From Camelus dromedarius (taxonomy: Eukaryota): a stretch of 64,000 nt of DNA. This document shows, piece after piece, positions 15,305-63,570 of this stretch (its first letter is position 1; each line of letters begins with the position of its first letter). The DNA lies in NCBI RefSeq assembly GCF_036321535.1, contig NC_087436.1, positions 4,092,001 to 4,156,000 of the forward strand. The letters are read 5' to 3'. The notes beneath the pieces were generated by a model that was given only the letters and a program-made list of their open reading frames with translations, was not told the DNA's origin and made no database searches. A program made the translations under genes and the position numbers.

Positions 15305-15609
15305 TCATTTGGGAGGGGGAGGGGACTGATGGTGGGATTTTGGAGAACATTTTGGAGAAGAATGTGTGGGTGCATGCAGAGGGGGCTGTGCCCCAGGGGG
15401 TGGAGATGCCTGAACTGGTTCTCCGTTGCCCAGCAGTCCAGGTGCAGATTCAGGGTCAGGGGGAGCTGCAGGAGCAGCAGGAGGGAGCTCGGGGTCCCCT
15501 GCTGGACCCAGATCGTCCTTTTGTTGGTCTCTGACAACTTCCCCTGCCCCTGCCTCCTCTGTAACTATTGGATGTGGACAGAGTTTTAAGTCTTGTGGAA
15601 GAGCTCATG
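15305..15609 (-). pseudogene. RALGDS-like Pro/Ala-rich linker exon (truncated)
   Basis: Strong acceptor tttttcctctctcacag| at 15610/15609, phase 1. TGA at 15607-15605, then ALPQDLKLCPHP...GDPELPPAAPAAPPDPESAPG...SPPPPK* ending at 15305. Confidence 0.6.
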
Positions 15610-15870
15610 CTGTGAGAGAGGAAAAATTTACCCACCTGCCTCCATTTCCATGTGCCTCTTCAAGGACAGAAGCCTTCCCAGAACTTTCCAGACAGCTCCC
15701 ACCCAGAAAGTGCCCACAGGATGTGTTCTGTGACTGAATTTTTCCAGACAGGTGGTCTGAGGCCATTCTTTGCTCTGGTCCCAACAGTAGCCTCTGGGGA
15801 CACCTCCCTGTGTGGCCCAGCCCTCACCCCTCCCTCACCTACACACCTGCACCAGCCCTGCATTTCTGAC

Positions 15871-15985
15871 CTTCGGGCTCTGCTTCGGGGGCTCCTGGTC
15901 CTCCAACTGACTTGCAGCGAGATGGGCACGGTGCTCCAGGTCAGAGCCGGGTGTGCTGAGCTACCCGTCAGCCCCGGGCAGGTCC
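15871..15985 (-). pseudogene. 3' part of the RALGDS-like REM-domain-end exon
   Basis: *LSTPGSDLEHRAHLAASQLEDQEP then a 1-nt shift to EAEPE, ending GAA G|gtcaga (phase 1). TAG occupies the position of a Gln. Confidence 0.85.
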
Positions 15986-16077
15986 CTGGGGAGAGCCCTG
16001 TGTGATGGCTGGGTCAGAGGCGTGCCCCACTGATTTCTGGGCAATGGTGGTGGGGACCCCTCCATATCCAGACCCAC

Positions 16078-16185
16078 CTGGAGCCTGCGCTGGCCCTCAG
16101 AAGAGTGGCACACCAGCCCTTCACTTGGGGAGGGGGCGTTGGTGTTCTTACTCAACAGCTCCTGTTCAATATGTGGTATCTGGCT
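16078..16185 (-). pseudogene. RALGDS-like exon homologous to RALGDS exon 2
   Basis: ttgcag|AGC...CTC CAG|gtgggt, 108 nt, phase 0-0, SQIPHIEQELLSKNTNAPSPSEGLVCHSSEGQRRLQ. Confidence 0.75.
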
Positions 16186-16591
16186 CTGCAATGACAGTGA
16201 CCAGCAGCTGACCCGGCCTGGAAGTCTCAGAGCCCTGCCAGGCCAGGAACACTCCTGATTCTGTCCACTCGACCCTCTGCTGCCAGACCAGACCGGGACC
16301 TTGTTCAGCTCAGACACCCGGGAGGGAAAAGACATACCCAGAGAGCATGGGCTCCACCTTGGGCAGCAGGACCCTTCCCAGGCTCTCCACATCCCATCCA
16401 GCCAGCTTTGACCTGGGTTGTGGATGTGACCGGCCCTGCAGGGCTCTGATCTACTCTTGCTTGAGGCAGAAACCCATTCCCAACATGACTGCTCCACCTC
16501 AACCAGCCTTAAAAGGGCCGTGGGTCTACCTGGGTGGGATCTGAGTGGTGGCCCGGCCTGGGCGGGCCTGCCCTGGGCCTCCCTGTGTTAC

Positions 16592-16730
16592 CTTTGGGTC
16601 TCTCTGGCCAAAAGGCCAGAGGCGCCTTGGGTGAGACCTGACCCAACACCGGCAGCGTTGGTACAGCCCCTCGCTGCGGGCTTTCCGGGGGCTGCAGCCT
16701 CGGGATACTGGGATGCAGCAGAAAATGCTT
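16592..16730 (-). pseudogene. RALGDS-like N-terminal exon
   Basis: acag|AAGC ATT TTC TGC TGC...GAC CCA AAG|gtaac; 45 codons IFCCIPVSRGCSPRKARSEGLYQRCRCWVRSHPRRLWPFGQRDPK. Matches the recalled MF(S)CC.P.S.G...RRLWPF.RR N-terminus of expanded mammalian RALGDS-like genes. ATT at 16726-16724 occupies the position of the expected ATG. Confidence 0.75.
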
Positions 16731-16840
16731 CTGTCTCCAAACAAGTGAGTTGAGTAGGTACTTCTCTACAGAGTGGGTGCCTGGTGACTTCGGTTCCAAG
16801 TTCTGTTGGGCTCTATTGCCAGGGAAGTGAGGTCACTTAC

Positions 16841-16880
16841 TGGGGTCAACTTATCCAAGCTTCCTCCTGACACATAACTC
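16841..16880 (-). pseudogene. Putative non-coding first exon of the RALGDS-like copy (5' end approximate)
   Basis: Strong donor CCA|GTAAGT at 16841/16840 on minus, ~110 nt intron to the next acceptor, and a CCAAT box at ~16902-16906 just upstream. Confidence 0.45.
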
Positions 16881-17875
16881 CCCAAGGGCCTTTCTGGGCT
16901 GCCAATCTCTCATTTCTCACTCCATGCCATGTCCACACACAGTGACTCCAACTCAGCCCCCCCCCCATTGCCCTGGAGAGGCCTGGATGCAGCCAGTGCC
17001 GCAGCTCTGAGGACTCAGCTGGGTTTAGACCTGGCTCTCCCCACTCAGCAGTGCTGTCACCTTGGACAAGCCACGTGCCTCTCAGGGTCTCCCCAATTCC
17101 CCATCAGCACAGTGGGGATCATTCTGGCCCCTGCTTCCTAGAGAAGCCATCCTGTCTCTAGACCTAGAAACACCTACTGCATCTGTCACCCCCATGGGCT
17201 GGCTTCACAGGGAGCTCGTGCACAGACTCAGCAAAGGAAGGGCCCCACAGAGGGCTGGTGCAGCGCAGAGCACATGTCACACAGGCCTGGGTCTGCCCTG
17301 AGGTCTGGAGAAAGTCACTTTCCTTGCTGCTTGCTTCCCAGCTCCCAGTCGTGAGACTGAAATTAAATACAACTCTGACATCGTCCGCTCTGGCATGCAA
17401 CCTCCTAGGTCATTCTGTCATGTTGACATACAGGCCCAGTGTCCCATCTCGGCCTCTGTGGTGGGCTGCCCCACAATGGCTTCCTATTTTTTGCCTTCTG
17501 TTCCCATGCCATTGTGTGAACCCCACACCCTCCCCTGGAGGGTGGATGGACTTTGGGACCAGGTTCTGACATGTAGACTGACTTGTGAAAATGTGCTTGA
17601 GTTCCACTCCTTCCCAGCTCCAGTGTTCCTTCTCTCTGTCTCTGTCTCTCAGTGCCTCTCTCTCTGTCTTGTCTCTCTCTCTGTTTCTCTGTCTCCCCCT
17701 GCTTCTCTGTGTTTCAGTCTTTCTGTCTCTTTTCCTATATGTATGTGTGTATATATTTATGTGTATATGGGTGTATATATGTGTGTGTATTGTTCGGGCC
17801 CAGGGCAGGTCACTTCTGAAAATCCCTTGATGACATATTGATTATTTTGAATTCATGTTACTGAAGAAAAATTAT

Positions 17876-18848
17876 CCTTGAAAATTGTGCAAGCACTTTG
17901 GTGGGATCTGCTCTAAGGATCAGCACTGCTAGGGAAGGGATGCACCTGTGGTACTTTGATGTATCCTGCCCCTTGTTCTGCCGGAGAGGAGCGTCCATTT
18001 GCTCTTCCCTCCAGGGGGCCTCCTGGGGTCTCTGCCTGCTCACGTTGTCACCAGGGCTGGTTGTCACCGGGCTAAAGACCTGCCAGTGTGATGGTGGCCA
18101 ATGCTGTCTCTGCAGTCTGTCCATCTGCCTGTGTCCTCACCTGAGAGGTCGAGAATCTCTAGCAGACACTGGCCACCTGCACTGCCTCTCGTTGGAACTG
18201 CCTGTGTGTGTTTTGTTTCTTTTCAGAACACTGGGCTTCAAGAGGTTTTTGGACCACAGGGATGTGAAGCTTTTCTCCGACCTTGGGTCATGAGGAAAGC
18301 TTTTTCCAGGCTGTGGTTTTTCTTTCCAGCTGTCTTTCTTGGCCTTTGTTTTCTGCTTTAGTTTGGTTTTATTTTGCCACAAGAAGAGCTAAGCATCTCC
18401 CTTCTGGCTCTGGTTTCACACTTAGAACAGCAGTGCCTACCCCGAGATTATGCAGAGTTACTAAAAGGGCTTCATTTGGTACGTCTCATCTTTAATCCAT
18501 CTGGATTTTCCTCTCAAAATACAAAAATGCTAATTCACGTGAAAACAAACAAACAAAAAATTCACCCGTCCCTACTTAAGATATATGGGCAAACAAACAA
18601 AAAGCCACCTTTTATATGATTTCATTGATAGGGAACCTCCAGGATTGGTAAAGACATAGAGAGAGAAAGGGGATTAGGGCTTGTCATGGGCTGGGGGAGG
18701 TAGGATGTGGGGTGCACTTTGTACACAAGCTTTTACGTTGAGGAAGGAAATAGTCTGAAACCAGTGGTGTTGGTCTCACAGCATTGTGAATGCACTTAAT
18801 GCTCCTTAAAATTGCACAATTTAAAATGGGAAAAGGCTAAACTTTATT
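17876..18848 (+). repeat. ~1 kb direct repeat, copy 2
   Basis: Collinear with 14201-15202; roughly 80% identity by eye. Confidence 0.9.
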
Positions 18849-18879
18849 CTTATAAACTTAAAACAAAAATGGAATATAA

Positions 18880-19590
18880 TATAATAGAAAAGAAAAACAT
18901 CTGACTCCATAGAAGATCTGTCCTTTTGGCTTTAACCCTGTGCCCTCTTTTCTAGGCTTAGTCTTACTAGCTCTGCACATTTTGTAAAACAGTGTTGTCT
19001 TTAGCCTGAAATATACAGGAGAGCCTATTTTCAAGGCTCTGATCTTTAAGGATATTACCACTTTTGCACTTATATAAAGACAAAAAGATGCAGAATACAA
19101 AATTACTTTTGTTTTGTTAGAGGTTTTACAGAGCCACTATGACCTGGTCTACATAGACAGCTGCAGACCAAGATAATGGCGGACTACTATCTTGGAGAAC
19201 CATCTTCCCCAATTCAGACTTCAGGCTCCTTTTCTGCTAAAAAGGGGAGGGGCTGTGGTTGGTTGTTGCAAACTTCTTGGTGTAGGATTTCTTTGTTCTT
19301 GGAATCCTTTGCAGATGTCCACGTGGGTCAGATCATGGTGTTCCTGTAAAACCTGCAACCAAACAAACTTGTTCTATTCTGCAACTTGTTATCTTTATAG
19401 GAGTGCAAAAGTGTTAATATCCTTAACGTTCATAGTTTTGAAAATAGGCTCTCCTGTTTATTTCGGCTAAAGGCAACATTGTTTTACAAAAGGTGCAGAG
19501 CTAGCAAGACTAAGCCTAGAAAACAGGGCAGAGGGTTAAAGGAAAAGGCACAGATCCAATATGGAGTCAGATTTGTTCTTCTCTATTACA
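18880..19590. mobile_element. Two ERV1-type LTR 5' portions fused in opposite orientation (inverted repeat)
   Basis: 18880-19167 begins TATAATAGAAAAGAAAAACATCTGACTCCATA. 19168-19590 ends TATGGAGTCAGATTTGTTCTTCTCTATTACA, the reverse complement of the same LTR start. Confidence 0.85.
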
Positions 19591-20699
19591 GTGCCTTTTG
19601 GTGAGAGCTAAGAGGATGATTCCTGGGTGGGTCCTCCACTGTCCCAGGCTGGAGTTCAGGCAGGATCTCTGCCAGATTCACCATGACTTTGGACCTGATC
19701 TCCCACAGAGAAAGTGACAATTACTGGATTAAAGTTACCTGTCAAAATCCCTTCAATTGCAGGTAAACTATAACACAGCAGGGGATGTCTCATTGGCCAG
19801 TCAACTGCCAGTCTCCCCTGATGCAAGGGACCAGCGTGGCGGCCGGATCCATGGTGGCCTGGCCAGTGCACCTTCCTACTTTGCTCTCCAGCCTTGGCTT
19901 CCTAACTTTGACACTTTAAAAGCTCCCATCCCTCTTCCCTCTGGCCTGGTGTGAATGAACAAGGTCCCTGCACCCACCTGGGCTGAGGCCAGGCCACACA
20001 CACAGCCCCATGCACACAGCCCACCATCTGCTGTCTGCCCCTGGGCTCAAGTGCACACTCTGAACTCCCCCACCTCAAAGGTCTGCGTGCCAGTGCCTCC
20101 GCCCTAAGGGTCCAGACCACCATCAGGACCATCAAACACCCAAGGCCCACAGGCCAGTGGCTGGCAGCCTGGGATCACCCTGACCCATAGGGTCAGTTGA
20201 GGAACAGGGTGCAGGGATCAGGGTGCCAGGGCAGGAATTGGAACAGCCTTCAGTCCAGCCTGCCTCGCCCTGTAGCCTCAGACATTAAATATGAAGGTGC
20301 ACACTAGGCTGGATCCCCCACTGGTGGCAGTAGTCATCATTACTGGAGCCCGGATTTCCCCACCCCAACCACAGGGTGAGGGGTGAGGGAGTGAGCTCAG
20401 GGTAGGGGTGCACTCAGAGTGAAGGGGATCCCATGGTGAGGGGGTACAGGTTGTGGGGTGTGGGGCCCGCTTAGAATGGAACTGACCTGGCTGAGAGGTG
20501 AGGGGGACAATTTCAGGATGTTGGGCGTCCTGTGGTGAGGCATGAGGGGTAAGCTTGTGGGTGTAGGGGCCATAGGTTAGGACCTAGCAGGATGGAGTGT
20601 CAGGGCAGGGACCTCAGTGTGAGGAGAAGGAGCCCTGTCTTCAAGGTCTGGTGGGACACTGGGCCTGGCCAGGGGTGGGAGGGTAGTAACAGGGAGGGG

Positions 20700-21450
20700 A
20701 AGGTGAGCAGGGGAAGTGGGGCTGGCGGGGTGTGGCCTGGCCCAGGGCAGTCGTGGTTCTAGTTCAGTTCCAGGACCCAGTCGGTGGCGGGGTGAAGGCT
20801 CTGGGGATGGAGACCCGGCGGGACGAGCAGGAGGGGCACCACCTGGCTCCTCCCGGCCCCAGTGGCCAGGGCCGGTAAAGCAGGAGACCCACCCGGGCAG
20901 TTTGCGCTGCAGGCGGGAGGAGGAGGGGAGCGCACGTGCAGACGGACAGACGCGCGGACGCCGGAACCCGCCCAGAATGCGTGGAAGCTGGCGGGAGCCA
21001 GTTGCTCCTGGACCAGCTCCTGGAAGAGGAACACGGCTTGGGGTCTGGGCCGCCGCTTGCCCTCGGTTCGGCTGCTGCTGCCGGGCAGTTAAGGGGGCGC
21101 TGGTGGGGGCCCGCTGCTCGGGGAGCCGGCGGGTGACGCCTGGGCTGTGCGGCTGAGGAGGCGCACAGGGAGGGGTGCGGAGGTGAGGTCCAGGCCGCGC
21201 GTCCAGTTAGGACCCTGAGGCGGGTCCCAGCCGCCGCTGTAGTTCGTGGTAATCCCGCTATTAGTAGTTCCTGAACCCTGCGTTTTTGCCGCCGCTTATG
21301 TCCGGGTTTAGAAGAGCAGGCACAGCCCCGGGAGGTGGGAGGGCACCGGACGGCTCCGGAGCATCTCCGACTGGCCCTCAGACCATGGCCTGCTCCTGGG
21401 AGGCGGGTGCAGTGCGGGCGCGGGGCCTCGGATGGAATGGGGGCTGCCCC
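20700..21450. promoter_or_regulatory. CpG island / promoter-like region
   Basis: Sharp rise in GC and CpG density. Contains GCGCACGTGC (E-box/NRF1-like, ~20930), CCGGAA ETS-like core (~20961), GC boxes, and candidate donor GGAG|GTGAGG (+) at ~21182. Confidence 0.75.
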
Positions 21451-22250
21451 ATGTGAGCCCCTGGATTTGCTCCCATCTTCCCCGCGGCCTGACCTTGGAG
21501 GCGGCCTCTAAATCCCCAGGTTCTTGTGACTCAGGTTACAGGTCAGGCTGCTCCTGGGAGGTGGGCGCGTTGCGATCAGTGTGCTGGGATGGCTGTAGCA
21601 GCAGCGGGAAATGGTTGCAACCCCTGCGCTCTCACAAGGCAGCCCCAATCCCACCATCGCAGCCGCCGCCATTCCCTGACAGCACAGCACCCGCCTTCCA
21701 GGAGCAGGCTGACCTGTAACCTGAGTTCCACAAACCTGGGGCAGCAGAGGCCAAGCTCAGGCTATGTGCTGGGGAGTTTGAAGCAAATCCACAGGCACCC
21801 ATGGGCGGACCCCATAACCAGCCACTGCCTTCTACCACACAGCGCCCTCCTCCCGGTAGCAGGCTGACCTGGGGACCGTGCCTGGAGCAGCAGAGGCCGA
21901 ACCCTGGACAGGCCGTGGGGGAGATGGGGGCAAATCGACCAGCTTGCCAGGTCGCTGCCCATCTCCCTGCCGCTGTCCCAGGTTCGTGGACCACTTGTTT
22001 TCAAGTCAGTGGGTTCCTGAGAGGCAGGCGCGGTGCAGTCAGGAGGTGGGGGCTGCGGGGAGGGGTGCTGCCCCAGGGGGAGCAGGTGGACTTGCTCCCA
22101 TCTCCCCCAGGGCCAGACCTGGGTACGGCCTCTGCTGCCCCAGGTTTGCAGGACACATGTCATGTCAGCCTGTCCCTGGGAGGAGGGCTCAGGTTACTCG
22201 GGGCAGCCTCAGTGGCTGAGAAGGGTTTTAGAAGTGGGCTCTAGCCCAGC
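21330..22250. repeat. Degenerate GC-rich tandem array with an internal inverted segment (possibly L1 5'UTR monomers)
   Basis: Recurrent motifs CTGCTCCTGGGAGGCGGG, GCTCCCATCTCCCC and CCCCAGGTT occur in forward orientation, and in reverse orientation at ~21630-21945. Confidence 0.65.
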
Positions 22251-22309
22251 ATAACTAACTCTCCTTTCTTCTCTTGCTTCCTCAGTTGGTGGCTGTATCG
22301 GCTTTTTCT

Positions 22310-23425
22310 TTATAGGTAATTGCTGGATAATGAACATAGGTTTCTGTGCTATACAGAAGAAACTTTATTTAAAATCTATTTTTATATATAGTGGCTAAAA
22401 TTTGTAAATCTCCCAGATTTATCCCTTCCCATCCCCTTTCCCGGTAACCTTAAGATTGTTTACTAAGTCTGCAAGTCTGTTTCTGTTTTGTAGATGAGTT
22501 CACAGTGTCTTTTTCTCTCTTTTTTTGGATTGCACATATGAGTGGTATCATTTGGTATTTTTCTGTTTCTGGCTGCTTTCACTTAGAATGACGATCTCTA
22601 GCTCCATCCATGTTGCTGCAAATGGTTTTATTTTGTCCTTTTCATGCTAGAGTAGTATTCCAGTGTATAAATATACCACAACTTCTTTATCCAGTCATCT
22701 GTTGCTACATTTAGCTTGCCTCCATGTCTCAGCTATTGTATACAGTGGTGCTATGAATACTTGGGTGCAGGTATCTTTTCACATTGGAGTTCCTTCCAGT
22801 TATATACCCAAAAGTGGGATTGCTGGGTCATAGTGTAAGTCTATTTTTAGTTTTTTGAGTGATTTCCATGCTTTCCATAATGAGTACACCAAACTGGATT
22901 CCCACCAGCAGTGTAAGAGGGTACCCTACCCTCTTCTGCCTCTCTAGCATTTATCATTCATGAAATTCTGAGTGATGGCCATTCTGACTGGTGTGGGCTG
23001 ATACCCCACTGTAGTTTTGATTTGCATTTCTCAGTTTATTAGTGATACTGAGCATTTTTTCATGTGTCTATTGGCCATTTGTATCTTCATTGGAGAAATG
23101 CTTGTTTAGGTCTTCTGCCTATTTTTGGATTGAGGTTTTTTGTTGTTGTTGTTGTTATTAAGTTGTATGAGCTGTTTATATATTCTGAAAATTAAGCCTT
23201 TGTTAGTCGTATCATTTGCAAATATTTTCTCCTATTCGTAGGTTGATGTTTTCTTTTATTTATGGTTGCCTTTGCTGTGAAGAAAATTATGAGTTTAATT
23301 ACATCCCATTTGTTTGTTTTTTTCTCTTATTTCCATTGCCTGGGTAGATTGCCCTAGGAGAACGTTGCTAAGATTTATGTCAGATAATGTTTTGCCTATG
23401 TTTTCTTTTAGGAGATTTATCAAGT
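22310..23425 (-). mobile_element. LINE-1 3' portion (5'-truncated)
   Basis: Antisense L1 3'UTR plus ORF2 end; similar to 41700-42540. Confidence 0.88.
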
Positions 23426-26400
23426 CTTGTCCATCTGCAGCTTAAGCCTGTCCTCTAGATCTGTGCTTCAGTTTTGCATTTTGAGCTTCTTAGAGAACAC
23501 CTACTCATAGCTCATATGTCAGATTCAACATGTCTAAAGCTGATTTCATAATCTTTTTTCTTGCAGCGTCTCCACTTATTCAGTGGGATAATCATTCTTC
23601 TGGTCTTCAATAGCCAAAGGCTTGGAATGGTCTTTGATTCATCTTTCTCTCACCACCCTCCATATTTTGTCAGCTTCTGAAACTGTATGTTTTTGGTTTC
23701 AAGTGTCTATTCTGATTGCTGATACTCTGATGAAGAGCTTTCATCCCTGATACATGAATTTTTCCTTCTGTTGAATTCTTGGATATTCTCTCACCCCCCC
23801 TTTTCAGTCAACCTATTATTTTGACCTTCCAACATCTAGAGTCAAGTCAAAGACTTACCACAACCAGATCTCAGACAGGTAATGTCGACCCTCCATCATT
23901 TTGGCCTTACCTTATGTGTTCCAATCATTATGTGACTTAGCCTCCTAGGGTAACCTGTGCCTTATTAAAAACCAGGAGTCACCAGCCTTTTCCTATCCAG
24001 TCCTCAGTTAAAACAGCTTAGAATTGCCCTGAGAACTAGTTGGAGCCCCATCCCCTTCATAGAATCTTCCCTATTAACTCCAAATTCTTCTAGCTCCTCT
24101 TTGTATTCCTGCACTGTTTATGATCGGTAGCCTGTTATCTTGGCTTTGAGTACTGACTTGGTACCATTCCCGGGTGGTTTCCAATGTGTCTCCTCACTTA
24201 GCTGGTAACTGGAGAAGACTCCCTTGTTCAGCCTCCTTTATACCCCTCACCCTGCTTAGCATCGGGCAATAGCAGGCATCCAGGCAGTGCTTACCTACTT
24301 TATTTATTCGCAGGGGTGGTGGTGTGGAGTATAGCTAATAACTATCAATTCAGTGTTGCAATTAAAAAAGAAAGCCAAGAAAATCCATAAAACTTTATCT
24401 CCATGTTCAGTTTAGCGCTTTACCTCAACAGTTTTCTTAACTCTGTGTTTACATTCACATAGTGTTCAGTGCTTGTACAGTTCCCTGAGGCAAGCAGGTT
24501 AGATGTCATTAAGTTTGACTTTCACGTTACATTTCATATTGGATATATTTGTGGAATGACAAAACCTTCTTTTATAAGTAAACAGCCGGAAGCCCAGAGA
24601 GACTAAGGGCCTAACCCAGGGTCACCTGGTTAGTGTTTGGCACAGGCCAGGACTGCGGTTCATATCTTCCAGCTGCTCCTCTTCCAGTGCCTTTTCATTC
24701 CAGTGCTGGGAAATGTAGCCCCATCAGGCAAACGGCCAAGTCACATTGCTGCCCCTTTACCTGCCAGTGATGGCAGTGCTACAAAAAGTGGCAAAGGAAA
24801 GGTCAGAAATAGGAGTGATAAAAGACATGGAAGTGCTGGAAATGAATCCTCAGCCTCCACCTCCCTATTTGAGCGCCTCAGGTGTCCCACTCTGACAGTG
24901 CTGTTCATTGTTTATAACATAGTCTTTAAAATCAGACTGTTCTTTTATAGGACATGCTTTTATCCTGGTCCCTTTCCTGCTAGTAGTCACCGTCATGGGC
25001 AGAAAGTGCCTGACTGTGCTCTGTTTGTCACGTAGGTGGGAGGGAAAGTGGGAGACGGAGCAGGTTGAACTGAAGCTGAGCTTTTTACAGCTCTGTTGTT
25101 CTAGGACCAGAGCAGTTCCACTACTGCTTTCATCACCTCTCCACCTCCAAGTCCCAGCTACCCACTCCTGCCTGCTTCCGCACACGCCACGTCCTGGGGG
25201 AGGACAGGGTGGTGGGCAATGACCCCTCCGCCCTCCGCCCTGGGAGGTGCAGGAGTCTGCTTCAACTTTTGAGCTGTTTTGGTAGTTGGGCTTTTCCAGC
25301 CTTTCTAGACATCTGCTTTCCAGCTCTGGGAAATTGGAGATATAACTTAACCATACATGGACAATACTAATGTATTCAGTGGCATTAATGTGATGTTGTC
25401 TGTAAGGTGTTCTGTAACTGGATAGGAGGTTTCTTTTATCTCACAGTATGCTTCATATCCAATTCTAAAGGCATACAGGCTGCAGGTGTAATTCAAGTTC
25501 TTACATGTCTGTAAGGCAGACATGAACAGTATTTGGTAATATGACCATGTGTTCATAGATTACAGTTAGTCCACTGGCTCTGTATCTAATAAAAGTTTAA
25601 ATTCCAAACTCTTCAAGAAAATTTGTGGAACATGTCTTTTCGCCTGTAACTAGTTACAAAAACTGAAATCACAACTCTACCACAAGCAACAGTGTTTCCC
25701 AGTAGAGAAATCCCTCCACTTTTACAACCTCTAAGTAATGCGGTGGTTCTTTGGATGAGATGAGGGATGCCAGAGTATTTTGTTGGGAAACTAGAGTGGC
25801 ATGACAAGTATTCTGGGACTGGTTACAGTTGAATCTCTACTTCCTATATCCTGGACTGATTACAGAGGCAATTTTAGTGCAGTAACCAGCTTCTGAATGC
25901 AAGTGTAGCTAGGAAGACAACAGAGAAAATAGAAGGGATATAAAGTAATGGAGGGACTTCAGAGCAGTACAAATGGTGACTTTGACACCAGCAGCTGCTG
26001 ACATGAACTTGGCAGGAATTTGTGAGAAGTGGTGGGTGTCATTGCAAGCAGGAGATTTCTGCAGCTTTTGGGGTGAACAGGCAAAGGGGAGAGCAGATAT
26101 GGTGGTAACCCAGGGGCTATTTGTGTCCTGAATGTGAAAATGTCTGGTCCCCTGTTCAATTTTGCAGCCACAACTTCAAAAGACTCATGGCATTATTTCA
26201 ACCAGAAAACCATAAAAGCATAAACAACCTCTATTTCCCAAAGTGTTTGTTCTCGATCTGAGATGATTGTCCTGTGGTGGGAGGTAAGTGGGCGATGGGG
26301 CCTATTACATCACCCCCTTTCACTAAAAGTCTACCTTGCTGCTTTTCACCCTACTCCTAGAGGTGCTGTCATTCTGTTACACCTAGACCTGTAAGACGGG

Positions 26401-28189
26401 CTTGCCTGAATCCTCACATGAAGAGGGACGGTAGTGTGCAGTTTTAAAAAATTGCTTGGGTCATGGGGTCCTATGTTCCCTCCATTGGAAATCACTGTTC
26501 CAGAGCAAATAGTATGCATCTATAGAAACTATATTGTTTGTAAGATGTCTTCAGAAGTTTTGCAGTAGGTTTAAATATTTGCTTAGTGATGGCATCTTTA
26601 TTGTTTGAAGGAGGCAATCCTCACTAGGGGCTTTGTGTGCTTCCTGTCTGAGAGTTCCTTTACTGGCAGTAGAGTGTTCGTAGGCAGAGTTAGAAAGTTA
26701 CCTGGTCTGAGAAGCCGAATTTGCCCGCAGCTGGGAATTGGCAGAAGAGTCAGTTATGGAAGGAAGGCTTTAGGATTATCTGGTAGCAGAGTTCTGGGAT
26801 CCAAACCCTGAGAAACCTCAGCTTTTATAGAGTATGTTCTGTAGAAATAGGCTATTGGGTAATTTTAACACTTGTTATGGGATGTAGAGTTGGGGAAAGA
26901 CTTAAAAGTGAAAGAACCTTAAAAGAGAATCTCCAAATATTTTAAAGAAGACAGTAATCAGAATGAGAGCTTTTCTGGAAAAGACTAGTTCTTCACTTCA
27001 CAGGGGAAGCAGGGAGCAGGTGTAACTGCACTTACGGTAACTTAAAAGGTAAACCTCTCCCTCCCACTTAGCTGTTTCCTGGTGTCCGTTCATCTTCCAC
27101 ATCTGTAGTTTTAGACATGACGTGTCATTTTCTGGTACTCCATTCTGCTTCTGAGTGAGAGACTGACACAAAGTCACATAGCAATGGAAAAATTACGCAA
27201 AGGATTTTATTGTTAAAAATGTAGACCTGTGGCAGGGTGCTTCATTTGCAAGTGACTTTCAGTAAAGAGAACACTTAAAAGAATGCAGTGTTATTTCTTT
27301 TTTTATTCCTTTAAGCCTTTGAATAGAAGGTTTCTTTGCAGAGTTTCTGGTGTACATCAGAAAAAGCAGGAACTAAAAATAGCTTTAAGAAAGCACCAGT
27401 ATAGACGTTACTTATAGTATGGTATCGGTCTTAAAGTTAATTCTTTAAAGCAGGAAGTTGTAACTCTCAATTTCTTAAGCAAATATAAACATTCTTGCCT
27501 CTTAATGACATTCTTTGTGGGGTGAAGCTGCTTTTGCTTCCATTCTGAGCATTGAAAGGCCTTCTAGGATACTTCTAGCAGTCCTCAATATTTTATTTTC
27601 CCTCTGTTGTGAACTTATTAAACTTGAAGCAGATATAAATATCATTAACTTACTACATATGTAGATATTCAGTGTTACATAGTCAGAAAGTTTGTGTACA
27701 TCGCACATATCTACATAATTCCCCCCTTTCCAACTGTGTTCCTGATGAAAGAATGGTGGGAAATGGCATTATGGGGATATGTCTTACAGTACACAGTGTT
27801 TCCCCTGTTCCCTCTACCAGATCTGGATGTTCTTTCATCTTTCGGCTTCTAGATTTACTAGTTCTTTTTCTTAAGCCAGGTGTAACTCATCCCCTTGCTC
27901 GTACACACACAGACACACACACACACACACATTCTGCTGTAGGGAGTAGCGTGCACCATCCCATGCTCCTACTCCAGCTCTGATCCCACCCACTGGAGGC
28001 AGTGTCTTGCACGAATTCATTTGTAAGTTCCTTTTTAAAACTCGAGTGGTCGGGAAATAGGACTGATATCCACACCTAGTAGGTAGGCCCTAAAGGATAA
28101 CTTCTATGGTTAATGCCAGGTTATCTTAATGTTTGAGTACCTGGGTTTCATGGCTTCCTGTACCACCTGTGTGACCCATAATTCCCACA

Positions 28190-30207: not shown

Positions 30208-30367
30208 TTTAAACTTTTTATTAAAGTAATTAGTTAATTTTTTGCAGGGGGGAGGTAATTAGGTTTTTATTTATTTATTTTATTTTTAGAAGAAGTACTG
30301 GGGATTGAACCCAGGCCCTTGTGCATGCTAAGAGTATGATCTTTCACTTGAGCTGTACCCTCCCCCC
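30208..30367 (-). mobile_element. tRNA-derived SINE (Vic-1-like) with TSD
   Basis: TSD TAAATTATCTTT at 30196-30207 and 30368-30379; B box GGGATTGAACCC. Confidence 0.9.
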
Positions 30368-54049: not shown

Positions 54050-54270
54050 TTTTTTAACTGAAGTATAGTCAGTTGCAATGTGTTAATTTCTGATGTACAG
54101 CACAATATTCCAGTCATTCATATACACATATGTATGAATTCCTTTTCATATTGTTTTTCATTAAAGGTTATTACAAGATATTAAATATAGTTCCCTGTGC
54201 TATACAGAAGAAATTTAGGTTTTTTAGCTATTTTAATATATAGTAGTTAATATTTGCAAATCTCAATCTC
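54050..54270 (-). mobile_element. Short LINE-1 3' end
   Basis: T-run followed by ACTGAAGTATAGTCAGTT...TATAGTTCCCTGTGCTATACAG. Confidence 0.75.
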
Positions 54271-56560
54271 TGATGGGCATTTTTAAAGCCACATCTGGAA
54301 CCCTTGCTGCAGAAGAGTCTGAGAAATATATTTTCAACCTCATAGCCTTTTGGTTAGGAAGTTGGAATAAAGGCTGAGCTGGCTCACCTAACTTGTTTGC
54401 CTTTGTGAGTAAAGAGGACTGGAGTTTCAAGGCCCAATGAAATATCCCAGAATTTCAGTAGCAAACTCTTAAAGCAACCAAAATGCTCCCATCTACCAGA
54501 GCATGCCTTGTCCTTAGACACTGCTGGACATAACCACCAACGCTGTCTAAGGCATCGTCTTCATCTGGAGCACACCTTCTTCAGATGTCTAATATCCTGA
54601 TTAACAGTACAAGCTGGTTTGGATTCCAAAGGTCACAGGCAGACTTCTGCCTGACTTTGGTGTCTATATGCTCATTGAAGAGTCCTCTCTTAGATCAGTA
54701 AGGGCCGCCTGGTGTGTGGTTTGCCAGAGAATGTGGGTGCAGTGCTCCCTACCGGAGTCCTACCAGTTGTTTTATTGCAGGAAGAGAGAGAGCAAAAGAG
54801 ACAGAACAGGAAGTTCTTGTCCAGACTCAAATACAGCCACCCCCACCCAGGGCTCTTGCTCTGGGACACACAGCAGTGCAGGTCAGCAGTGACGTGGCCC
54901 TGGTGTATTCCAAAACATGGTGTGGTTGTACTGGGCTATCTGTGTCTTTCATGGACCCTGCAAAGTTCTCAGCTTTGTGAAATGGGGAACTAAGGAACAC
55001 CCACCCATGCCTGTAGCTCCCAGAGTTTGCACCCTTACAGGTTTTGAGGATTCGCTGGTAATTCATTCTTTTTCACCAAGTCATTTCTCAGTTACACGGC
55101 AGTCCTGTGACTTCCTTATCAGAACTGCTCCTTAAGATAGGGATTTAGTGAAAGATGCCATTTTACCCTGTAAGTTCATATTCAGGGAGGAGGAGGAAGA
55201 CAGCACAGATCAGAATTGCTGTTTTGCTTTTTTTGTTATTTTTTTCATTAGCCGTCTCCTGTTGTCAAATAGACACTGAGCAAATGAATGACTGTTACAC
55301 TCCCATTTGAAGGATGAGGAAAATGACACTCAGGGAGAGGAGGCAAACTTCCTGAGGTTTCAAAGACAAAAAGGGAAGAGCAAAGAATAAGATCCCTGCA
55401 AATTTCGTGGCTGTCATCAGCCTTTAGGTCAGTGACAGAGTGCTGTGTGTAGTAGTAAAGCTGTAGCATGACTTTAGAAGGGTGAAGATGTTCTTGTTTT
55501 TGTTGATACAATCACACTGTTTTGTCTGGGACTCTGAAAAAGAGAAATGGGTTAGAAAATGTTGGTTTCTCATCCTTGGTCCTTCCTCCCCCTCACAGAT
55601 ATGGACCCTTCCATCTGTAGCAGGAATAAGACAGCCCCAGCCTTCCCATCTCATGAGATCAGTACTCATTCATTTCATCCCTGCCCCCCTGTAGGTGATA
55701 AAGCACAGCATGATTTTCATGTCCTGCTTCACTGATTCTTGTGAAATTAGGTGTTTGAAGATAGAAACTCATGAAAGGAAGCTCCTTTTTTTTATATATA
55801 AAGTGCAGTAATTTTCTTAGCAGAGAAGGTAATTGAGGATTTTCTTCATTGAAAATCAATAGAGATTTCAAGAGCATCTGTATTTCTGATGCATAGATTA
55901 AAATGACAAAATCTAGAGGGATTACAGAAATACAAGGAAGACACCAAAAGTGTCTTTAAAGAGCTTTTCTAAGACTGGGCTTGTAAAGAGACTGTTAGTT
56001 GACAGAGACCCTCTTCTCACCCATAGTCCCTCTCCTTAGGTTGCAAAGGGCCAGCGTTTCCCCTGTGTGCAGTCCTGGTGCTTCAAGTGAGTTGTGGGGC
56101 AGGGCGGTGCACATGGTGCTGCCTTCAGTTTGTCCATCCTAAGTAACCCCTGGCAGTCAGAGGGCGAGTGTTTTGCAACCTCATAAACCAGCCGCCATGC
56201 TCTCCGGGGTGTGTGCTCATCTCAGCTCATCCCGGCTCAGGTGAAGGCAGAGCAGAGAGTGGTGGCAAGAGGTCAGCCATGAGTAGCAGGGAGCACCTGG
56301 AGTCAGCTGGGACCCAAGTGGCCAGGAGTTCCAGGTGGAATTCCCAGGACTTCCCACAGCTCATTCATTCAGCTAATACTTCTCCAGCACCTGTGATGTG
56401 CTGGAGGTTCCGTTGTGAACAGAACCAAATCCCTGCCCTCATGAAGTTGACGTTCTAGTGGACATGAGAAATGATACACGCAGAAGCAGATCCAGGTCAG
56501 GACACATGAGTGCTGTCAATTTTGGAGTGCACAAGGTGAGATCATTTGGGAAGGAATGTA

Positions 56561-57169
56561 TGATACAGGAAAATGTGGGGGAGGGGATGGCCGTATCCCA
56601 GGTCTTATTTGGGACCCTGGGATGCACCTCGCCAAGTGTGGGTCCTTGGTTTGCGCAGGAACGAATCCAAGAGAGAGCCACAGTTCAGTTAAGGTAGATT
56701 TATTCAGAGGGATATATACTCCATAGACAGAGTGGGCTGTTTCAGAAGGCAAGAGAAAGGCCATGAGGCGTGGGAGTTGGGTGCTCCAGTTTAAAGTAAA
56801 AGTAGATACACACTCCACAGACAGAGTGTGGGCTGTCTCCCTCAGCAGAGAGAGCAGCCACAAGGTGTGGGGTTAGTTTTTATGCACTCAGTATCTTCAT
56901 ATGCTAATAAGTGGGAGGACTATTCCAACCGCTTTGGGGAAGGTGTTGGGATTCCCAGAAATTGGGCCACCACTCACCCTTTGACATTTTATGGTCAGCC
57001 ATGAACCTGTCCTGGCACCTGTGGGAGTGCCATCTAGCATCCTGCTGTATTTTGGTGAGTGTGTATTGAAGCTCAAGTTCTACTGGGAGTTGACTTTTCC
57101 ATTGTTTTGGTGCTAATGGCTGTGCCATTCTTTTAATGCCTGTGCCCGGCCCCCTTCCCTCCTGTCTCA
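56561..57169 (-). mobile_element. Solo ERV1-class LTR
   Basis: Termini TGATACAGG...CCTGTCTCA, flanks tgta/tgaa (4-bp TSD with one mismatch), internal ~100-bp duplication, AATAAA on minus near 56700. Confidence 0.75.
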
Positions 57170-59140
57170 TGAAGGAGCTCTGGACTGATTGCACAATTGC
57201 AGATCAGGGGACAGAGTGGAAAGAACTTCATAAGTGGAAGGTGGAAGGCAGTGTTGGCAGTAGAATTGTCAAGTCAATTGTAAAGTAAGGGTCTTCTGTT
57301 TGCTGGGGGTACCTGGTGTCACATGAGGGAGCTGTGAGCCTTGGGGACTTCAGTGAGTGGGTGGCTCACTGTGTATACTGTGTTGCTTCTTAGGCGGCCC
57401 GAGGACAGTTGGCTTATAGGTGACCCATTCACTCAAGCAGTGGTCTCTTTGGGGATTTTCTGCATGTGAGGCTAACATGGGTCACATGGGGGGCAGGTCC
57501 GGCCAGTCACAGCTTGGTCCACAGTCACCTAGCACCCTCAAGACTTTCATCCCATGGATGTGTCACCTCCACCTGGATGGGGACAAGGGCACAAGTGGCG
57601 GGGCAGCTTCTCAGTGGTGGAGGCATTGCTCTCCAGACCCAACACTCAACAGCGTGGACCCCTGGTTTTGGCCACAGTCTTGGCTAGATGAGGCTGTTGG
57701 GTAGCTGAGCTCATGAGAGGTGGGTGCCATGCTTCCAATCTCACCAAAAGCTCTACTTTTGAAGGTTCCGGTCAGAGAGCCACAAATACTCCCTAGCCCA
57801 TAAACAAAGAACAGTATCTTTCAATTAGGGAAGGCACACAGAAGGAGAACGGATCATCCCGAGAGCAGGAGAGGCCAAATCAGTCCTGCCATCAGGGGTC
57901 TGACAGATGAGCCAGCTCAGTTCCTTTTACTAGTTGTTTACTTGGAGGATCTGGGGTATTTGGGTGACCTGAAAGTGTCAGGAAATAGTACACGAGGGCT
58001 TTTTAGATTTTGTGGTCCGGTGTTAACTCACCCCATTGTAGCTGTTGTGCAAGGAAACAAAACTTGGTGGACAACAGGCCATGGCCTCTGCTCCCTGATG
58101 GAGCCAGGAGATTACAATGCTAAGTACGACTGCGGGGGCATCATTTCTATGTTGAGAGGCCAGATGGCCTTACATATCTCTCATGCTGGATGTCTAAGTT
58201 GCAGAGGGAAACTGGATTCCATCCAGCTCTCCAGCCAAGGAGGAGACCAGAAGTGGCCTCCCCCACCAACTGTGAGCTCTTTGCCTCCACTGACAGCAGA
58301 ATCTATAGCAAAAAGCTGGGCTGCCACCTGCGTTTCCGTGTAAACATCTGAGTACCCACAGCAATGGCCTCGTGAGGGTTGGTGTGCCCAAGGAAGCGGT
58401 GTGTGGGACGGTGGGAGGAGTGCCAGGGTCAGACACCGGGAGGGCAGGCAGGCAGTGATGACATCTGTGCAGCGCAGGCACCATGGAACTGAGACAAAGG
58501 GAGGCGGGTTTGGAGCAGGGAGCCAGAGCATTGCCTTGTTGCTCGTAAGAAGATCCTGGGCTCTGGATCCAAGAAGTCATTGGCTTGATTCCTGACCCCA
58601 ACCCTCATCTTGGGCAAATGTTTGAAGCTTTCTGTGACTCTGTTTCTTGGTGTCCCAAATGGGGACAATAGTAGCAATTACCTCAGAGAGTCAGGAGGGC
58701 CTTTATAGATGTCATTTCATTACGCTCACAGCAGCCCACGACCACGGTTCTAGGTCCCCCAGTTTACACGTGGCAGACGGGTAACCTTTTAATCAGTAAT
58801 CATGCAGCTAAGAATGGTCAGAACCAGCATTTGAATTTGATCCCTGTGTCCAGGTTATTTCTATTCTCACTCAGTATTACTGGAAAACTAGCAAAGTTAG
58901 AACAAACACTGCTGGGAAGTGGGTGCTTGAAACATGTTTGTCATTTTCGCCATTGGGGAGTGTTGAGTTCACGTTCCTCACAGCCCGTCTGAGGCTCCCT
59001 GCGTCTCCGGCTGCCCCTGCTGGGGTCTGCAGGGCTCTGGGCAGCTTCTCCTTGATCTCTACCCCAAGGCTCTCTGCTCTCTACAGGTTGATTCTCAACC
59101 CTGACTGCTCAGTAGAGCTAATGTCTAAAAACAAGAAAAG

Positions 59141-59278
59141 TGGGGAGGGTACGGCTCAGTGGTAGAGCACGTGCTTAGTATGCAAGAGGTCCTGGGTTCA
59201 ATTCCCAGTACCTCCATTAAAATAAATAAATCTAACTACCCCCCCAAAAAAGGAAAGAAGTATTTAAAAAACAATAAA
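59141..59278 (+). mobile_element. tRNA-derived SINE inserted in a MER5-like element
   Basis: GGGGAGGGTACGGCTCAGTGGTAGAG...GGTTCAATTCCCAGTACCTCC + A-rich tail. Confidence 0.9.
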
Positions 59279-60635
59279 CAGTACAAAGTCCCCACTCCAG
59301 GCTGGGGCGCACTATAATTAAAAGGCTCCCAGATGCTTCCCATGTGCAGGACGGTGAGAGCTACCCCTCTACACCTCTTCTCGTGAGCTTGTCCACTCTC
59401 ACCCATTAGCCTCTTGAAACAGGAAAACTACTTGGCTCAGCCTAGAACTTTCTCCCGATTTCTAGACTTTTATTTGCTTACTGGACATCTCTCCTGGAGC
59501 CCACAGGCACCCAGCCACAACTGAATCTGTTGTCTCCTCTGATGACTTGCCCCTCTTCCTGCCCTTCTTATTTCAGGGAACGGCACTATAATTTAGGACA
59601 CTGCCAAAGCCAGAAATCTGGCCGGTATCTTTGACCTCTTCCTGCCCTTCCATCACACCTGTGGCCAATCCGTCCACCTGCAGAAATGTTTTCTTCTCTC
59701 TCCTCCTGGCGGGGCCTCAGCAGGCCTTCACATGAACCTGCCAATAGGTCTCCCTGCCTCCATCTTTTCTCTTTCTACATCACTTTGCATGTCTCCTCTA
59801 CCTTGGAGGTGCACAGAGTCCTGTGTGATGTGCACCTGTGATCTCTCCACCTGGTTGCCTCACCTGCCTCCCACACCCTGTGCTCGCTTCTAGACTATTT
59901 GCAGTTCCTGGAAGGGACCTGGCTCTCTTTGGCCTCCCTCCTTTGCATGTGCAGCTCCCCAGGGAGAAATGGCCTTAACATTATACCTTCACCTGATCAC
60001 TTCTAGGGCATCTCAGAACTCACCACAGTGGTTCCCTCCTCTGGGAGAGCCTTGGCTACAGTTCTGGTTCTCTGCCCCGAGCACCCTCTGCTGACTGTTA
60101 TCCAAGCCCTCTTAACACGCCTTCTCAGCCATCATTTCACGTTGACTCCTGTGCACCTAGGAGCTCCCAGAAGCAGGGACTGTGTCTTTTTTCTCTATTC
60201 TCAGAGCATGGTAGAGACTCAGGTATAATGGTGGAGGGAACAGTGGTTATTCTGGAATTTCTCTAGAGTTGGGGCCTAGGGGTAACAGTCTGGTTGGAAG
60301 AAGGGCTTAGGGGATTTACCCAGAAGCCACATTTTCAATTAACATTTCATGTTGTTTTTGTCTACTATTTGAAGTTACAAGTCTTAAAACAGAATGACGA
60401 TTTCTAAAAATTACTTTACCGAAGATTGAGGAAAATGGCAGTTTTCCACATTTAAGAATATTATTTTAATTTTGTGTGACTGGGGTGGTGGAAAATAGAA
60501 ATGCAGTTTCTACTAAAGCATTCTCATCCCCTTCCCCACCCTCAGGTCCTTCGGACAGAAGAGACAGAGGGATGTGAGGAGAAGGCTTGGAGGGTGGACC
60601 ATGTGCTGCTTTTAAATCATGACAGTTACTTGTGC

Positions 60636-60740
60636 TTTTTTTTAAATTTCTTTTTTAATGGAGGTACTGCGGCTTGAACCCAGGACCTTGTACATGCTTA
60701 GCACGTGCTCTACCACTGAGCTATACCCACCCTTCCCCCC
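60636..60740 (-). mobile_element. tRNA-derived SINE
   Basis: ATGGAGGTACTG..TTGAACCCAGGACC...CTACCACTGAGCTATACCC. Confidence 0.9.
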
Positions 60741-61066
60741 GATATTTGTGTTTTTAGTGGGCATAGTGTGCTGGTAGCAGGTACTTTAGCATCAGACACA
60801 GTCACCTGCCTCTGACCATCACGTTAATACCTTTCCCCTGAGCTAGAGAGCTAGATAGCCTGTTTTCCCAAGTTCAATAAATTATCTACATTTTTTTTCT
60901 TAAAAAAAAGGCATTAACTCATGTTTCTCTTTAGTATCACCTATAAATAAATGTGATTTTATAAACCATTTACCAAAGTGTTAAGGGTAATAAATATTAA
61001 GTACAGATCTCTGAAGCATCAGTCATCACTGAAGATCCACATTCTGCTGTTCTCTCTCTCTGTTGG

Positions 61067-61203
61067 TCACCATACTTCTGGAGTTCTGGAAGCGGCGCCA
61101 GGCAGAACTTGAGTACAAATGGGACACGGTTGCGCAGGAAAAACAAGTCCGGCCAGAATAGGAGGTGCCGTGTCCCCACGTGGAGATAGATGAGATTACC
61201 CAG
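61067..61203 (+). pseudogene. ANO6: ANO6 pseudo-exon (~exon 11)
   Basis: TILLEFWKRRQAELEYKWDTVAQEKQVRPE*EVPCPHVEIDEITQ. 6-nt deletion, TAG at 61159-61161, acceptor AG->GG and donor GT->GA. Confidence 0.93.
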
Positions 61204-61254
61204 GAAAAGCGGGTGCTGTTTAGATGCACTTTAGTCTGTTTACTTCTGGGCTTG

Positions 61255-61425
61255 TCAGCCTTGGCTACATGTTGGAATCACCAGGGGACCTTAAGAAATG
61301 TTGGTGCCTGGATTCCATCACTGCAAACTCTGATGGTACTTAGTGGCCTGGGGTGCATTCTGGCATAGGGAAGTTTTTAAAGCTCCTCTGGTTATTCTAA
61401 TGTGCAGCCAAGTTGAAGGAGCACT
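61255..61425. mobile_element. MER5A-like hAT MITE
   Basis: GGAATCACCAGGGG...AAAGCTCCTCTGGTTATTCTAATGTGCAGCCAAGTTGA. Confidence 0.6.
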
Positions 61426-63494
61426 GCCTGGAATGGTGGACACAGAAGAGAAGTGAGGTCCTTCCTTCATAATAACAGTAAAAAGGGGGAAAAGAAAAAG
61501 ACTGGTATAAGTGTATAAGAAAAGAGGCATTGATTTGTATCCTTTCATAACACCAATAAAAAAATGCAAAATATAAATTAGCCGCTATGACATGGATGTA
61601 GAAGGAAAGACACATTGGTTTTTATAGTTGACTCCCGTTTTTTCACATGTGCCTTCATTATTGCGGCCTCCTTTTCATTGTAGACTAGGTGCCCCTTTGT
61701 CTTTAATTAAGTCCCGGTCACTGCTCCCCCTTCCGTTTGGGATGTGCACAAAGCAGCATGGCTCTCATCCTAAAGTCACAGAAAGGGTAGAAGAAGCAGG
61801 GAATTCTTTGTTGAGGTGCCATCAGTATTTGAGCAGTGTTTGAGCTAGGCATTTTATATAATTGGAAGTGTAAATTTATTGCTGCCACTCCTGCTGCAAA
61901 ATTAAGAAAATAAAACTATATATCTTTGTATCAACATTCCAGAGCTATGAAAAGATGATTTTTGAGTCATCTGTATTATTGCTTCTTTCCATCAGCTGAG
62001 ATAATTTAGAGCTGATGGTACTTGTAGTCAGCAGCAGCAGGACAGTAGGTTGTGAGCATGAATAACTCTTGGAAAGAAAATGCTTTTACTAGGAGCATCT
62101 GAAAATGTCTCCAACTATAGATTTAATAAATTGAATCACAGATCTACGGAATGTTTGCACTGAAAAGGTCTGGAGGGAGCAGGTCAAACTCCTCTTTTTA
62201 TAAATGGAAAAAAATGAGGTTCAGCTACCAATAGAAAGTGACATTTGTCTTTTACAATGTAATAAGCTTCTAACAATCCCCATTATGAATAGTTCCCATT
62301 GTTTACAACTGAAGATGGGGGTCAAAGCATATGTTGGTGAAAGACTGTACATTCAGAGATGAAAGCTGAAACTTAGACAAAATTAGATGTTCATAATGTT
62401 TTTGAGTCCTGAAGAACAAAAACGTATCATATTGGCAACATACAAAAAATACTGAAGAAAAGTTTTTTGGTCATTTAAACTGCCAATTTTAAATTTTAAA
62501 TTGCCAACTAATAAGTTTAAGTTTTCATTGGAACAAGCTTGTTGAAAAATTGAAGATGAAGACTCATTTCACTTTATCATTTTTCCTTCTTTAAAAAATT
62601 AACTTTTTTTTAGTTTTTTAATTGAAGAGTTTTACTTTAATTGCAAATGCATGCTCCATTGTTTAGAGAGGCCAGCGTTGTGGTAGTGAGACCTTGGGAA
62701 TGAAGTTGCCTAAATTCATATTTGAACACAGCAGCTTGCTTCCTGAGTGATCTTGGACATCTTAAATTCTCTGTGCCATAGTTTCCTATAAAATAAGAAT
62801 AAGAGAGTTGCTTCCTCATGACTGTGATAAGGACGGGTTGAATTAATGTGCAGAATCTACTTGGAAGACTTCCTGGCACAGAGGAAGGGCCATGTACTTA
62901 GTGACAGCTATTATTATACTATATCTGCTTTTATTATCCAGGTAAAACTTGAGTCTTACTGATTTCATCTCTAAAAATGAAATCTAATCATAAACTCTAA
63001 ATTGGAAACTCTAAAACTTCATAGTTGTAGCTAATTAACACATAAAGCTCAACCAAGAAACACACAGTGGAGACCAGGTAGCTGCAGACACCTGTGAAAC
63101 TTTCTGTTCTGCACGGACTCTAAGCTGTCACTAGCGTCACTTCTGAAATCTAAGGCAAGCTCAGGAATACAGCTTTACAGCTTGGCCTCGTCAGGTACCC
63201 AGACCCCTAAGCTCAGACCATGGCAGGGAAACAATTTGCTGTTCACATGTGCACTTACAAAAAATAGTATTAAAATGAACACTGTACATATTTTGTTGTG
63301 TGTTTGACATCGTTAACAGAAAAGAAAAGGAAAAAAAAAAAAAGGAAAAAAACCCATGCAGTTACAAATAAGGAGGCTATGTCTGAAAATTATTATTTTT
63401 TTTTTAATTATGTTTAGGATTTAGTGGCCAGTTAGGAGACAAATCATTTCACTGGTGTAATCCCTTGATTGACTAAACTTGTTTTTTTAATTAG

Positions 63495-63570
63495 GAAGAA
63501 GAGCTTGTTCCCTTTACCACCTGGGGAAAGTGTATACATATAACCCTTTGTGCAAGTGCTCTTTTTCTGG
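63495..63570 (+). pseudogene. ANO6: ANO6 pseudo-exon (~exon 12)
   Basis: EEELVPFTTWGKCIHITLCASA/FFW. 76 nt (-2 frameshift); ttag| and |gtaaga intact. Confidence 0.92.

Follow-up and report, generated by a model that had tools for sequence, protein, structure and literature searches.

In the genome of the dromedary, Camelus dromedarius (2.31 Gb, 171 contigs), the 64,000-nucleotide stretch C1:4092001-4156000, hereafter the window, has no N bases and joins fragments of two unlinked genes, KLHL2 and ANO6, to a third block that comes from neither ANO6 nor the region upstream of KLHL2. We consider it very probable that the window is one copy of an old, high-copy compound duplication unit of the camelid genome, more than 64 kb in length. 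Such a unit would comprise at least three ancestral pieces: a block rich in guanine and cytosine (GC-rich; 1-22.3 kb), a 9 kb KLHL2 piece, and an ANO6 piece of at least 33 kb, the start of which would precede the exon for residue 82. In window coordinates, the blocks and the joint between the gene pieces are as follows:

1-22302 (unstranded): block 3, amplified, originating neither in ANO6 nor upstream of KLHL2 (probes and parental alignment)
22303-31511 (+): KLHL2-derived block, spanning exon 2, a portion of intron 1 before it and some 1 kb of intron 2 after it (blastn to parent)
31279-31600 (+): KLHL2/ANO6 junction, in an L1 fragment common to both parents and beside a simple repeat (alignments)
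31279-64000 (+): ANO6-derived block, collinear with its parent and continuing beyond the window end (blastn to parent)

The parentage of the two gene pieces is clear from blastn alignments of 60 kb from the KLHL2 and ANO6 parent loci to the window. The stretch 22303-31511 aligns to C1:11566907-11576102 over 9 kb with 84-86% identity, and 31279-64000 aligns in order to C11:50628866-50663796 over 32 kb with 83-86% identity, the parental stretch C11:50646804-50652877 being missing from the window. The KLHL2 parent, 7.4 Mb away from the window, is intact, with 11 exon matches (75-97% identity) on C1:11574960-11673298 (+); the exons of the ANO6 parent lie on C11:50631133-50667869 (+) at 87-97% identity, one of them matching the Vicugna pacos protein in all 97 of 97 residues. 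With intact parents elsewhere, the pieces in the window are therefore duplicated fragments, and the eventuality raised in the initial annotation, namely that these blocks might be the only, syntenic KLHL2 and ANO6 loci, does not apply. The same annotation had envisaged intron-containing fragments of unlinked origin, and this is borne out by the positions of the parents (KLHL2 at 11.57 Mb of C1, ANO6 at 50.63 Mb of C11). Unlike processed pseudogenes, which would lack introns and carry a poly(A) tail, both pieces keep their introns and are collinear with their parents. To the left of the KLHL2 piece this collinearity ends: the 7 kb upstream of the parental alignment (C1:11560001-11566900) have no match in window 1-22300, which must therefore have another source.

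Exon content was examined by a Pfam scan of 14.9-64 kb, covering 366 stop-to-stop open reading frames (ORFs) of at least 48 residues with three areas of long interspersed nuclear elements excluded, and by tblastn with the alpaca ANO6 protein (P0034) for the placement of the ANO6 exons. The gene-derived features, along with the L1 insertion that interrupts them, are:

30424-30549 (+): KLHL2 exon 2, residues 10-50; frame open, AG acceptor, GT donor, 85% identical to KLHL2
32632-32700, 33603-33864, 34099-34197 and 36425-36547 (+): ANO6 exons, residues 82-276; stops, one frameshift and a 3-residue deletion
41508-41654 (+): ANO6 exon, residues 272-320; open frame, 84% identical
41687-47329 (-): L1 insertion; a gap in the ANO6 parental alignment, with L1-type ORFs
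61042-61365 (+): distal ANO6-derived exon, residues 369-416 and beyond; one stop, 2-residue deletion
63493-63597 (+): exon of camelid ANO6-like and chimeric models (model mapping)

The sole Pfam matches above the cut-offs among the 366 ORFs are Anoct_dimer at 33603-33785 (+; E-value 2.3e-8) and Anoctamin at 41499-41657 (+; E-value 2.4e-13). The exon at 41.5 kb matches 108 of 114 candidate proteins at 73-89% identity; they come from many mammals, and almost all carry the name ANO6. In place of a complete Anoctamin domain in an open frame, the window holds profile positions 2-43 of 460 and part of the dimerisation domain, and the ANO6 exons as a whole contain in-frame stops, one frameshift and two small deletions (tblastn). 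As the ANO6 frame is broken, the window copy is most likely a non-functional duplicate. The KLHL2 exon escapes Pfam because it precedes the BTB domain; neither the Pfam ORF scans nor protein-to-window mapping found any further KLHL2 exon in the window, including those for BTB, BACK and Kelch. The window thus holds a lone pre-BTB exon in place of the BTB domain, BACK domain and six Kelch repeats that define KLHL2, and is a fragment rather than a member gene. Several weaker Pfam matches below the cut-offs (LINC-PINT, WLS-like_TM, TMEM52, Anophelin, zf-C3HC4_2 and others) were taken as chance. Overall, the initial description of three intron-containing gene pieces within 50 kb, all truncated or disabled, stands for KLHL2 and ANO6, both of which the tools confirm, and is unconfirmed for the third, RALGDS-like piece discussed further below.

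The two pieces, from C1 and C11, abut at 31.3-31.6 kb, and such adjacency of duplicons from different ancestral loci is what defines a mosaic segmental duplication. The two parental alignments share 31279-31511, where the sequence also matches other L1 fragments within the window. In a three-way alignment, the window resembles the KLHL2 parent up to about 31450, fits both parents at 31300-31500, then passes through the simple repeat and resembles the ANO6 parent from about 31580. Since the joint lies in an L1 fragment carried by both parents, we propose ectopic recombination between L1 elements, with which the alignments are consistent, as its origin. The left edge of the KLHL2 block (22303) also falls in interspersed repeats, and the pieces of the unit would have been joined at repeats. 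Dinucleotide microsatellites lie at 5111-5165, 6353-6409 and 31500-31600, the last of these at the KLHL2/ANO6 joint.

The unit is multicopy throughout, probably with dozens to hundreds of copies on many chromosomes. In genome searches with probes taken along the window, the best 17-40 candidates were scored for each probe; the window's own locus is among the rows, the counts are floors, and repeats may contribute to the candidate totals from the first look (244-475, with 3958 for one probe):

2500-5000: 440 candidates; best 40 scored, 40/40 full-length, 92-96% identity
11500-14200: 475 candidates; best 40 scored, 40/40 full-length, 92-99% identity
15305-17305: 244 candidates; best 40 scored, 40/40 full-length, 92-99% identity
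28000-30700: 3958 candidates (repeat-inflated); best 40 scored, 40/40 full-length, 93-99% identity
23450-32600: 15401 candidates; best 17 scored, 16 other full-length copies, 93-98% identity
32600-41690: 7298 candidates; best 17 scored, 16 other full-length copies, 91-98% identity

The 9 kb blocks, which are unique gene sequence with introns, accordingly have the properties of segmental duplications, i.e., non-transposon sequence of at least 1 kb recurring in at least two places with at least 90% identity. At the protein level, one ANO6 exon (residues 76/100-201) was found in 46 copies on 24 contigs with 63-83% identity, 44 of the 46 containing stops. Copies of the unit occur on more than 30 contigs with the same order and spacing of parts; for example, the 15305 and 23450 blocks are 8145 apart in the window, 8123 on C6, 8092 on C15 and 8122 on C22. 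The C20 and C13 copies were followed from 2.5 kb to 64 kb, and 54080-64000 is collinear in both of these, the two copies compared (97.4% identity in C20 and 95.3% in C13). Compared with the window, the C20 copy is 93% identical over 2.5-5 kb, rising to 99% over 11.5-17.3 kb and then falling to 98% over 23-41 kb and 97.4% over 54-64 kb, a profile that places the left edge of the latest C1/C20 event between 5 and 11.5 kb. As junctions, order and spacing are identical in every copy followed, the mosaic appears to have formed once and then spread as a unit. Hence, the local "hub" of independent accretion put forward in the initial annotation is not sustained. All probes are multicopy, and the copies are collinear where followed.

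Copies were located on the following five contigs of known length, and a preference for pericentromeric or terminal positions is plausible:

C1 (123.3 Mb): copies at 0.25 and 4.1 Mb
C4 (98.5 Mb): copies at 0.18 and 2.2 Mb
C11 (73.0 Mb): copies at 66.7-72.5 Mb
C20 (39.8 Mb): copies at 38.0-38.2 Mb
C13 (71.1 Mb): copies at 38.0-41.0 Mb

Many copies also sit on small unplaced contigs, as might be expected if mis-joined or over-expanded repeats in the assembly had created the juxtaposition or the multiplicity. However, the copies are non-identical, differing by 1-9%, and gene models from the assemblies of two other species splice across the same KLHL2-to-ANO6 join. Moreover, 16 sequencing runs without an RNA record, belonging to three organisms and several studies, contain 40-46% of the sampled words of window 29800-33000, at least part of this stretch being represented in 20 of the 24 listed runs (the small word shares in tick and other metatranscriptome runs are uninformative). 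We therefore regard an assembly artefact as extremely improbable.

The divergence of the sequences bears on the order of events. The KLHL2 and ANO6 pieces are each about 15% diverged from their parents, as against 1-9% among the copies themselves; the former value points to an old fusion, and the two together suggest that the spread came later, with gene conversion and rate differences left aside in this ordering. The L1 at 41687-47329 has no counterpart in the ANO6 parent and is present in the C20 and C13 copies, judged by spacing, and thus predates their split. An old fusion would then have been followed by this L1 insertion, after which the finished mosaic would have been copied whole to many chromosomes. 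Within the L1, long open frames include one of 238 residues at 45898-46614 and reverse-transcriptase-like ORFs at 42275-43701 (minus strand).

Further support for the compound unit comes from gene models of other camelids. The best matches of the ORF containing the KLHL2 exon are chimeric automatic models:

LOC116661728, "uncharacterized protein", Camelus ferus: 270 and 332 residues, 94% identical, with an Anoct_dimer domain
"uncharacterized protein", Vicugna pacos: 341 residues, 86% identical
LOC116661546, Camelus ferus: 215 residues

Among these models, P0109 and P0110 from Camelus ferus and P0111 from Vicugna pacos map to an exon at 20.9-21.1 kb, to KLHL2 exon 2 and to the ANO6 exons. The unlinked parents, together with the origin of the closest chimeric models in C. 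ferus and V. pacos, uphold the initial suggestion of a camelid mosaic of duplicated fragments. The relevant features in the window are:

20300-22250 (+): GC-rich region, 65% GC, CpG observed/expected 0.44, holding the first exons of the camelid chimeric models (20909-21109)
15406-15516, 20083-20193, 20909-21109, 30416-30586 and 32086-32193 (+): model exons
32630-32830, 33569-33900, 36432-36515 and 63495-63566 (+): model exons, continued

The methionine of P0111 maps to 20977. AG acceptors precede the ANO6 exons at 32630 and 33603, and a GT donor follows the exon ending at 33864; the dinucleotide after the exon ending near 32797, like that after the GC-rich exon at 21085, is GC. The chimeric transcript models seen in the other camelids would result from splicing that leads from the GC-rich block to KLHL2 exon 2 and on to the ANO6 exons.

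These models raise the question of whether the copies constitute an expressed, camelid-specific chimeric gene family with a GC-rich promoter, KLHL2 exon 2 and ANO6 dimerisation exons, in which some copies are under selection and the window is a decayed member. In its favor, the models run to 215-341 residues in both Camelus ferus and Vicugna pacos, splice sites are kept, and the four copies checked all retain an open KLHL2 exon 2; of these four, C15 and C13 (the latter with one stop) lack the frameshift that the window and C20 show in the ANO6 exon for residues 113-200. Two of the 46 copies of the ANO6 exon are free of stops, and of the words sampled from 29800-33000, 62% occur in one RNA-seq run and 44% in another. 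However, the window copy has several stops and a frameshift, the remaining 44 copies of the ANO6 exon contain stops, substitutions are scattered and mostly residue-changing, and the models are automatic predictions. The word shares of the RNA runs far exceed the exon content and are therefore no sign of splicing; unspliced RNA or DNA carry-over may account for them. Hence, we consider a selected gene family unlikely and prefer the interpretation of the window as a decayed copy of a duplication unit. One copy on C27 combines an ANO6 exon without any stop (26679915-26680220, 80% identical) with KLHL2 exon 2 (26683142-26683276, 80%); its divergence exceeds that of the other copies, and it could represent an early member or one that has been better kept.

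Certain points weigh against the compound-unit interpretation or narrow it: (i) the L1-L1 mechanism is drawn from an alignment overlap, with the putative breakpoint resolved to about 300 bases that include a simple repeat; (ii) support for the junction is indirect, coming via diverged paralogues and the gene models of other species; (iii) the absence of the frameshift from the 113-200 exon of some copies means that loss of function need not extend to the whole family; (iv) the copy number is a floor derived from the best 17-40 candidates per search, with first-look totals that may include repeats; (v) amplification of 47-64 kb was followed in two copies; and (vi) block 3 has a single distant relative (C4:97.764-97.768 Mb, 73-78% identity), which is without a recognisable domain.

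Block 3 is also where the initial annotation had placed its RALGDS-like gene, the features concerned being:

15308-15960 (-): the "RALGDS-like" relic, made up of a proline-rich ORF (15308-15604) and a short ORF (15838-15960)
14205-15202 and 17866-18848 (+): direct repeat pair, 79% identical, flanking the relic with 2.7 kb between them (self-BLAST)

From this gene followed the proposal, modeled on primate NPIP and TBC1D3, that the KLHL2 and ANO6 fragments gathered around an amplified RALGDS-like gene acting as a core duplicon. The DNA in question does exist, and 15305-17305 is highly multicopy. Within the ORF at 15838-15960, a motif of about 20 residues may resemble RALGDS just before its proline-rich linker; as a 30-nucleotide degenerate pattern (15922-15951), this motif has 61 genomic matches versus none in a reversed control. 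Further, the C4 relative of the 15-17 kb stretch stands without KLHL2 or ANO6 parts in the 10 kb examined there. Against these observations, a six-frame scan of 15000-22400, with stops read as X and E-values up to 0.05, returned no RasGEF_N (REM), RasGEF (CDC25) or RA domain and no Pfam family at all; RasGEF and RA (PF00788) likewise had no match in any Pfam scan across the window, and searches of 5.8 billion and 1.84 billion proteins returned no RALGDS protein. The proline-rich ORF 15308-15604 (-) has one weak match among 2466 candidates, to a proline-rich protein. For the 41-residue ORF 15838-15960 (-), phmmer against 1.84 billion representatives gave four matches, none of them RALGDS: two short domain-less proteins (P0161, and P0162, "predicted GPI-anchored protein 58" of Camelus ferus) and two unrelated ones. 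Further tests of the RALGDS identity gave no PDB match at E-values up to 10, no usable match in the ESM Atlas, and no genomic match to a strict back-translated pattern.

Nor are RasGEF genes amplified genome-wide. All 81 candidates for RasGEF (PF00617) were scored and 47 match, none in the window; this is an ordinary complement of scattered loci, unlike the multicopy clusters of the duplicon probes. Flanking probes are equally or more multicopy than the supposed core, the left 15 kb of the window being amplified as much or more, and the same junction spacing among copies gives no sign of independent accretion. Thus, the RALGDS identity of the stretch is unsupported, and the core-duplicon idea is not favored; we judge this model very unlikely. 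One RasGEF-domain locus at C1:7097400-7099283, 3 Mb from the window, stands out for the unusual length of its exon matches and contains one TAG; the locus may represent a gene of RGL type or a pseudogene, and as far as tested it has no relation to the duplicon.

In the remainder of block 3, a scan of 1-14.9 kb, in which 150 of the 163 ORFs of at least 46 residues were included (13 of 46-47 residues were dropped and the L1 area at 8150-8900 was excluded), found no Pfam family. The diverged relative on C4 (97764238-97767529, 73-78% identity) matches window 16804-14205, has a single copy of the direct repeat that aligns to both copies in the window, and shows no Pfam domain on its plus strand. 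The direct repeat pair may be either a local duplication or a pair resembling long terminal repeats that arose in the lineage of the unit. Diverged internal direct and inverted repeats (72-76% identical) are present at 21398-22188, inside the GC-rich region.

Most work on large mosaic duplications that are spread between chromosomes and yield chimeric transcripts has been done in primates, where mosaic segmental duplications accrete around core duplicons such as NPIP/LCR16a, TBC1D3, GOLGA and NBPF. The camelid unit resembles these in combining duplicons from unlinked loci, joined at interspersed repeats, dispersed between chromosomes at 90-99% identity and giving rise to chimeric transcripts, here in the form of gene models. 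It differs in that the whole unit of more than 64 kb recurs with identical junctions, in that the junction repeat is L1 rather than Alu, in that no piece is seen to be more connected, and in that no expressed core gene was seen. Non-processed pseudogenes and chimeric fusion genes share with the unit the retention of introns, partial copies, disabled frames and, in the models, the splicing of exons from two genes, whereas the unit exists in far more copies than a typical duplicated pseudogene does.

Within camelids, the closest parallel is a group of repetitive alpaca blocks rich in pseudogenes, with NEK10-like, ATF5, FMN2-like, uS3m-like, ACTB and ABHD17A-like sequences in 5-19 copies each on chromosomes 17, 11 and 36, which the authors attribute to segmental duplication and subsequent decay (PMC13751797, Chromosome Res 2026). 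Those blocks are likewise multi-copy, fragmented, gene-derived sequences in repeat-rich domains. In contrast, KLHL2, ANO6, anoctamin, kelch and RALGDS are absent from the main text, and the present unit occurs on more than 30 contigs with gene models also in Camelus ferus. Term searches of the VicPac3.1 paper and of a preprint on South American camelid copy-number variation find none of these gene names, and no full-text paper naming ANO6, KLHL2 and camel together was found. Mosaic segmental duplication is a known kind of structure, of which the KLHL2-ANO6 unit is a case without description in the literature searched, in keeping with the initial annotation, which knew no account of such a block.

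With clear parents and a repeat-mediated junction, this camelid family offers an independent case of how mosaic blocks form and spread. In practical terms, camelid annotations such as "uncharacterized protein" and "anoctamin-6-like" that consist of KLHL2- or ANO6-like fragments are products of the unit, and the unit will confound read mapping, copy-number calls and assembly. A more ambitious scenario, which we consider possible but doubtful, is that of a camelid-specific ampliconic family of several hundred copies (about 1% of the genome if there are 250-475 copies of at least 64 kb), located mainly near chromosome ends or centromeres, in which the GC-rich block would drive the formation of chimeric KLHL2-exon-2/ANO6 transcripts in tissue of the reproductive system; such a family would parallel, outside primates, the gene families of core duplicons. 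Lastly, some copies form inverted, palindrome-like pairs about 100-120 kb apart, at C25:21627963-21658411 (+) and 21756114-21786426 (-), and at C9:53087827-53126451 (+) and 53249017-53287639 (-).

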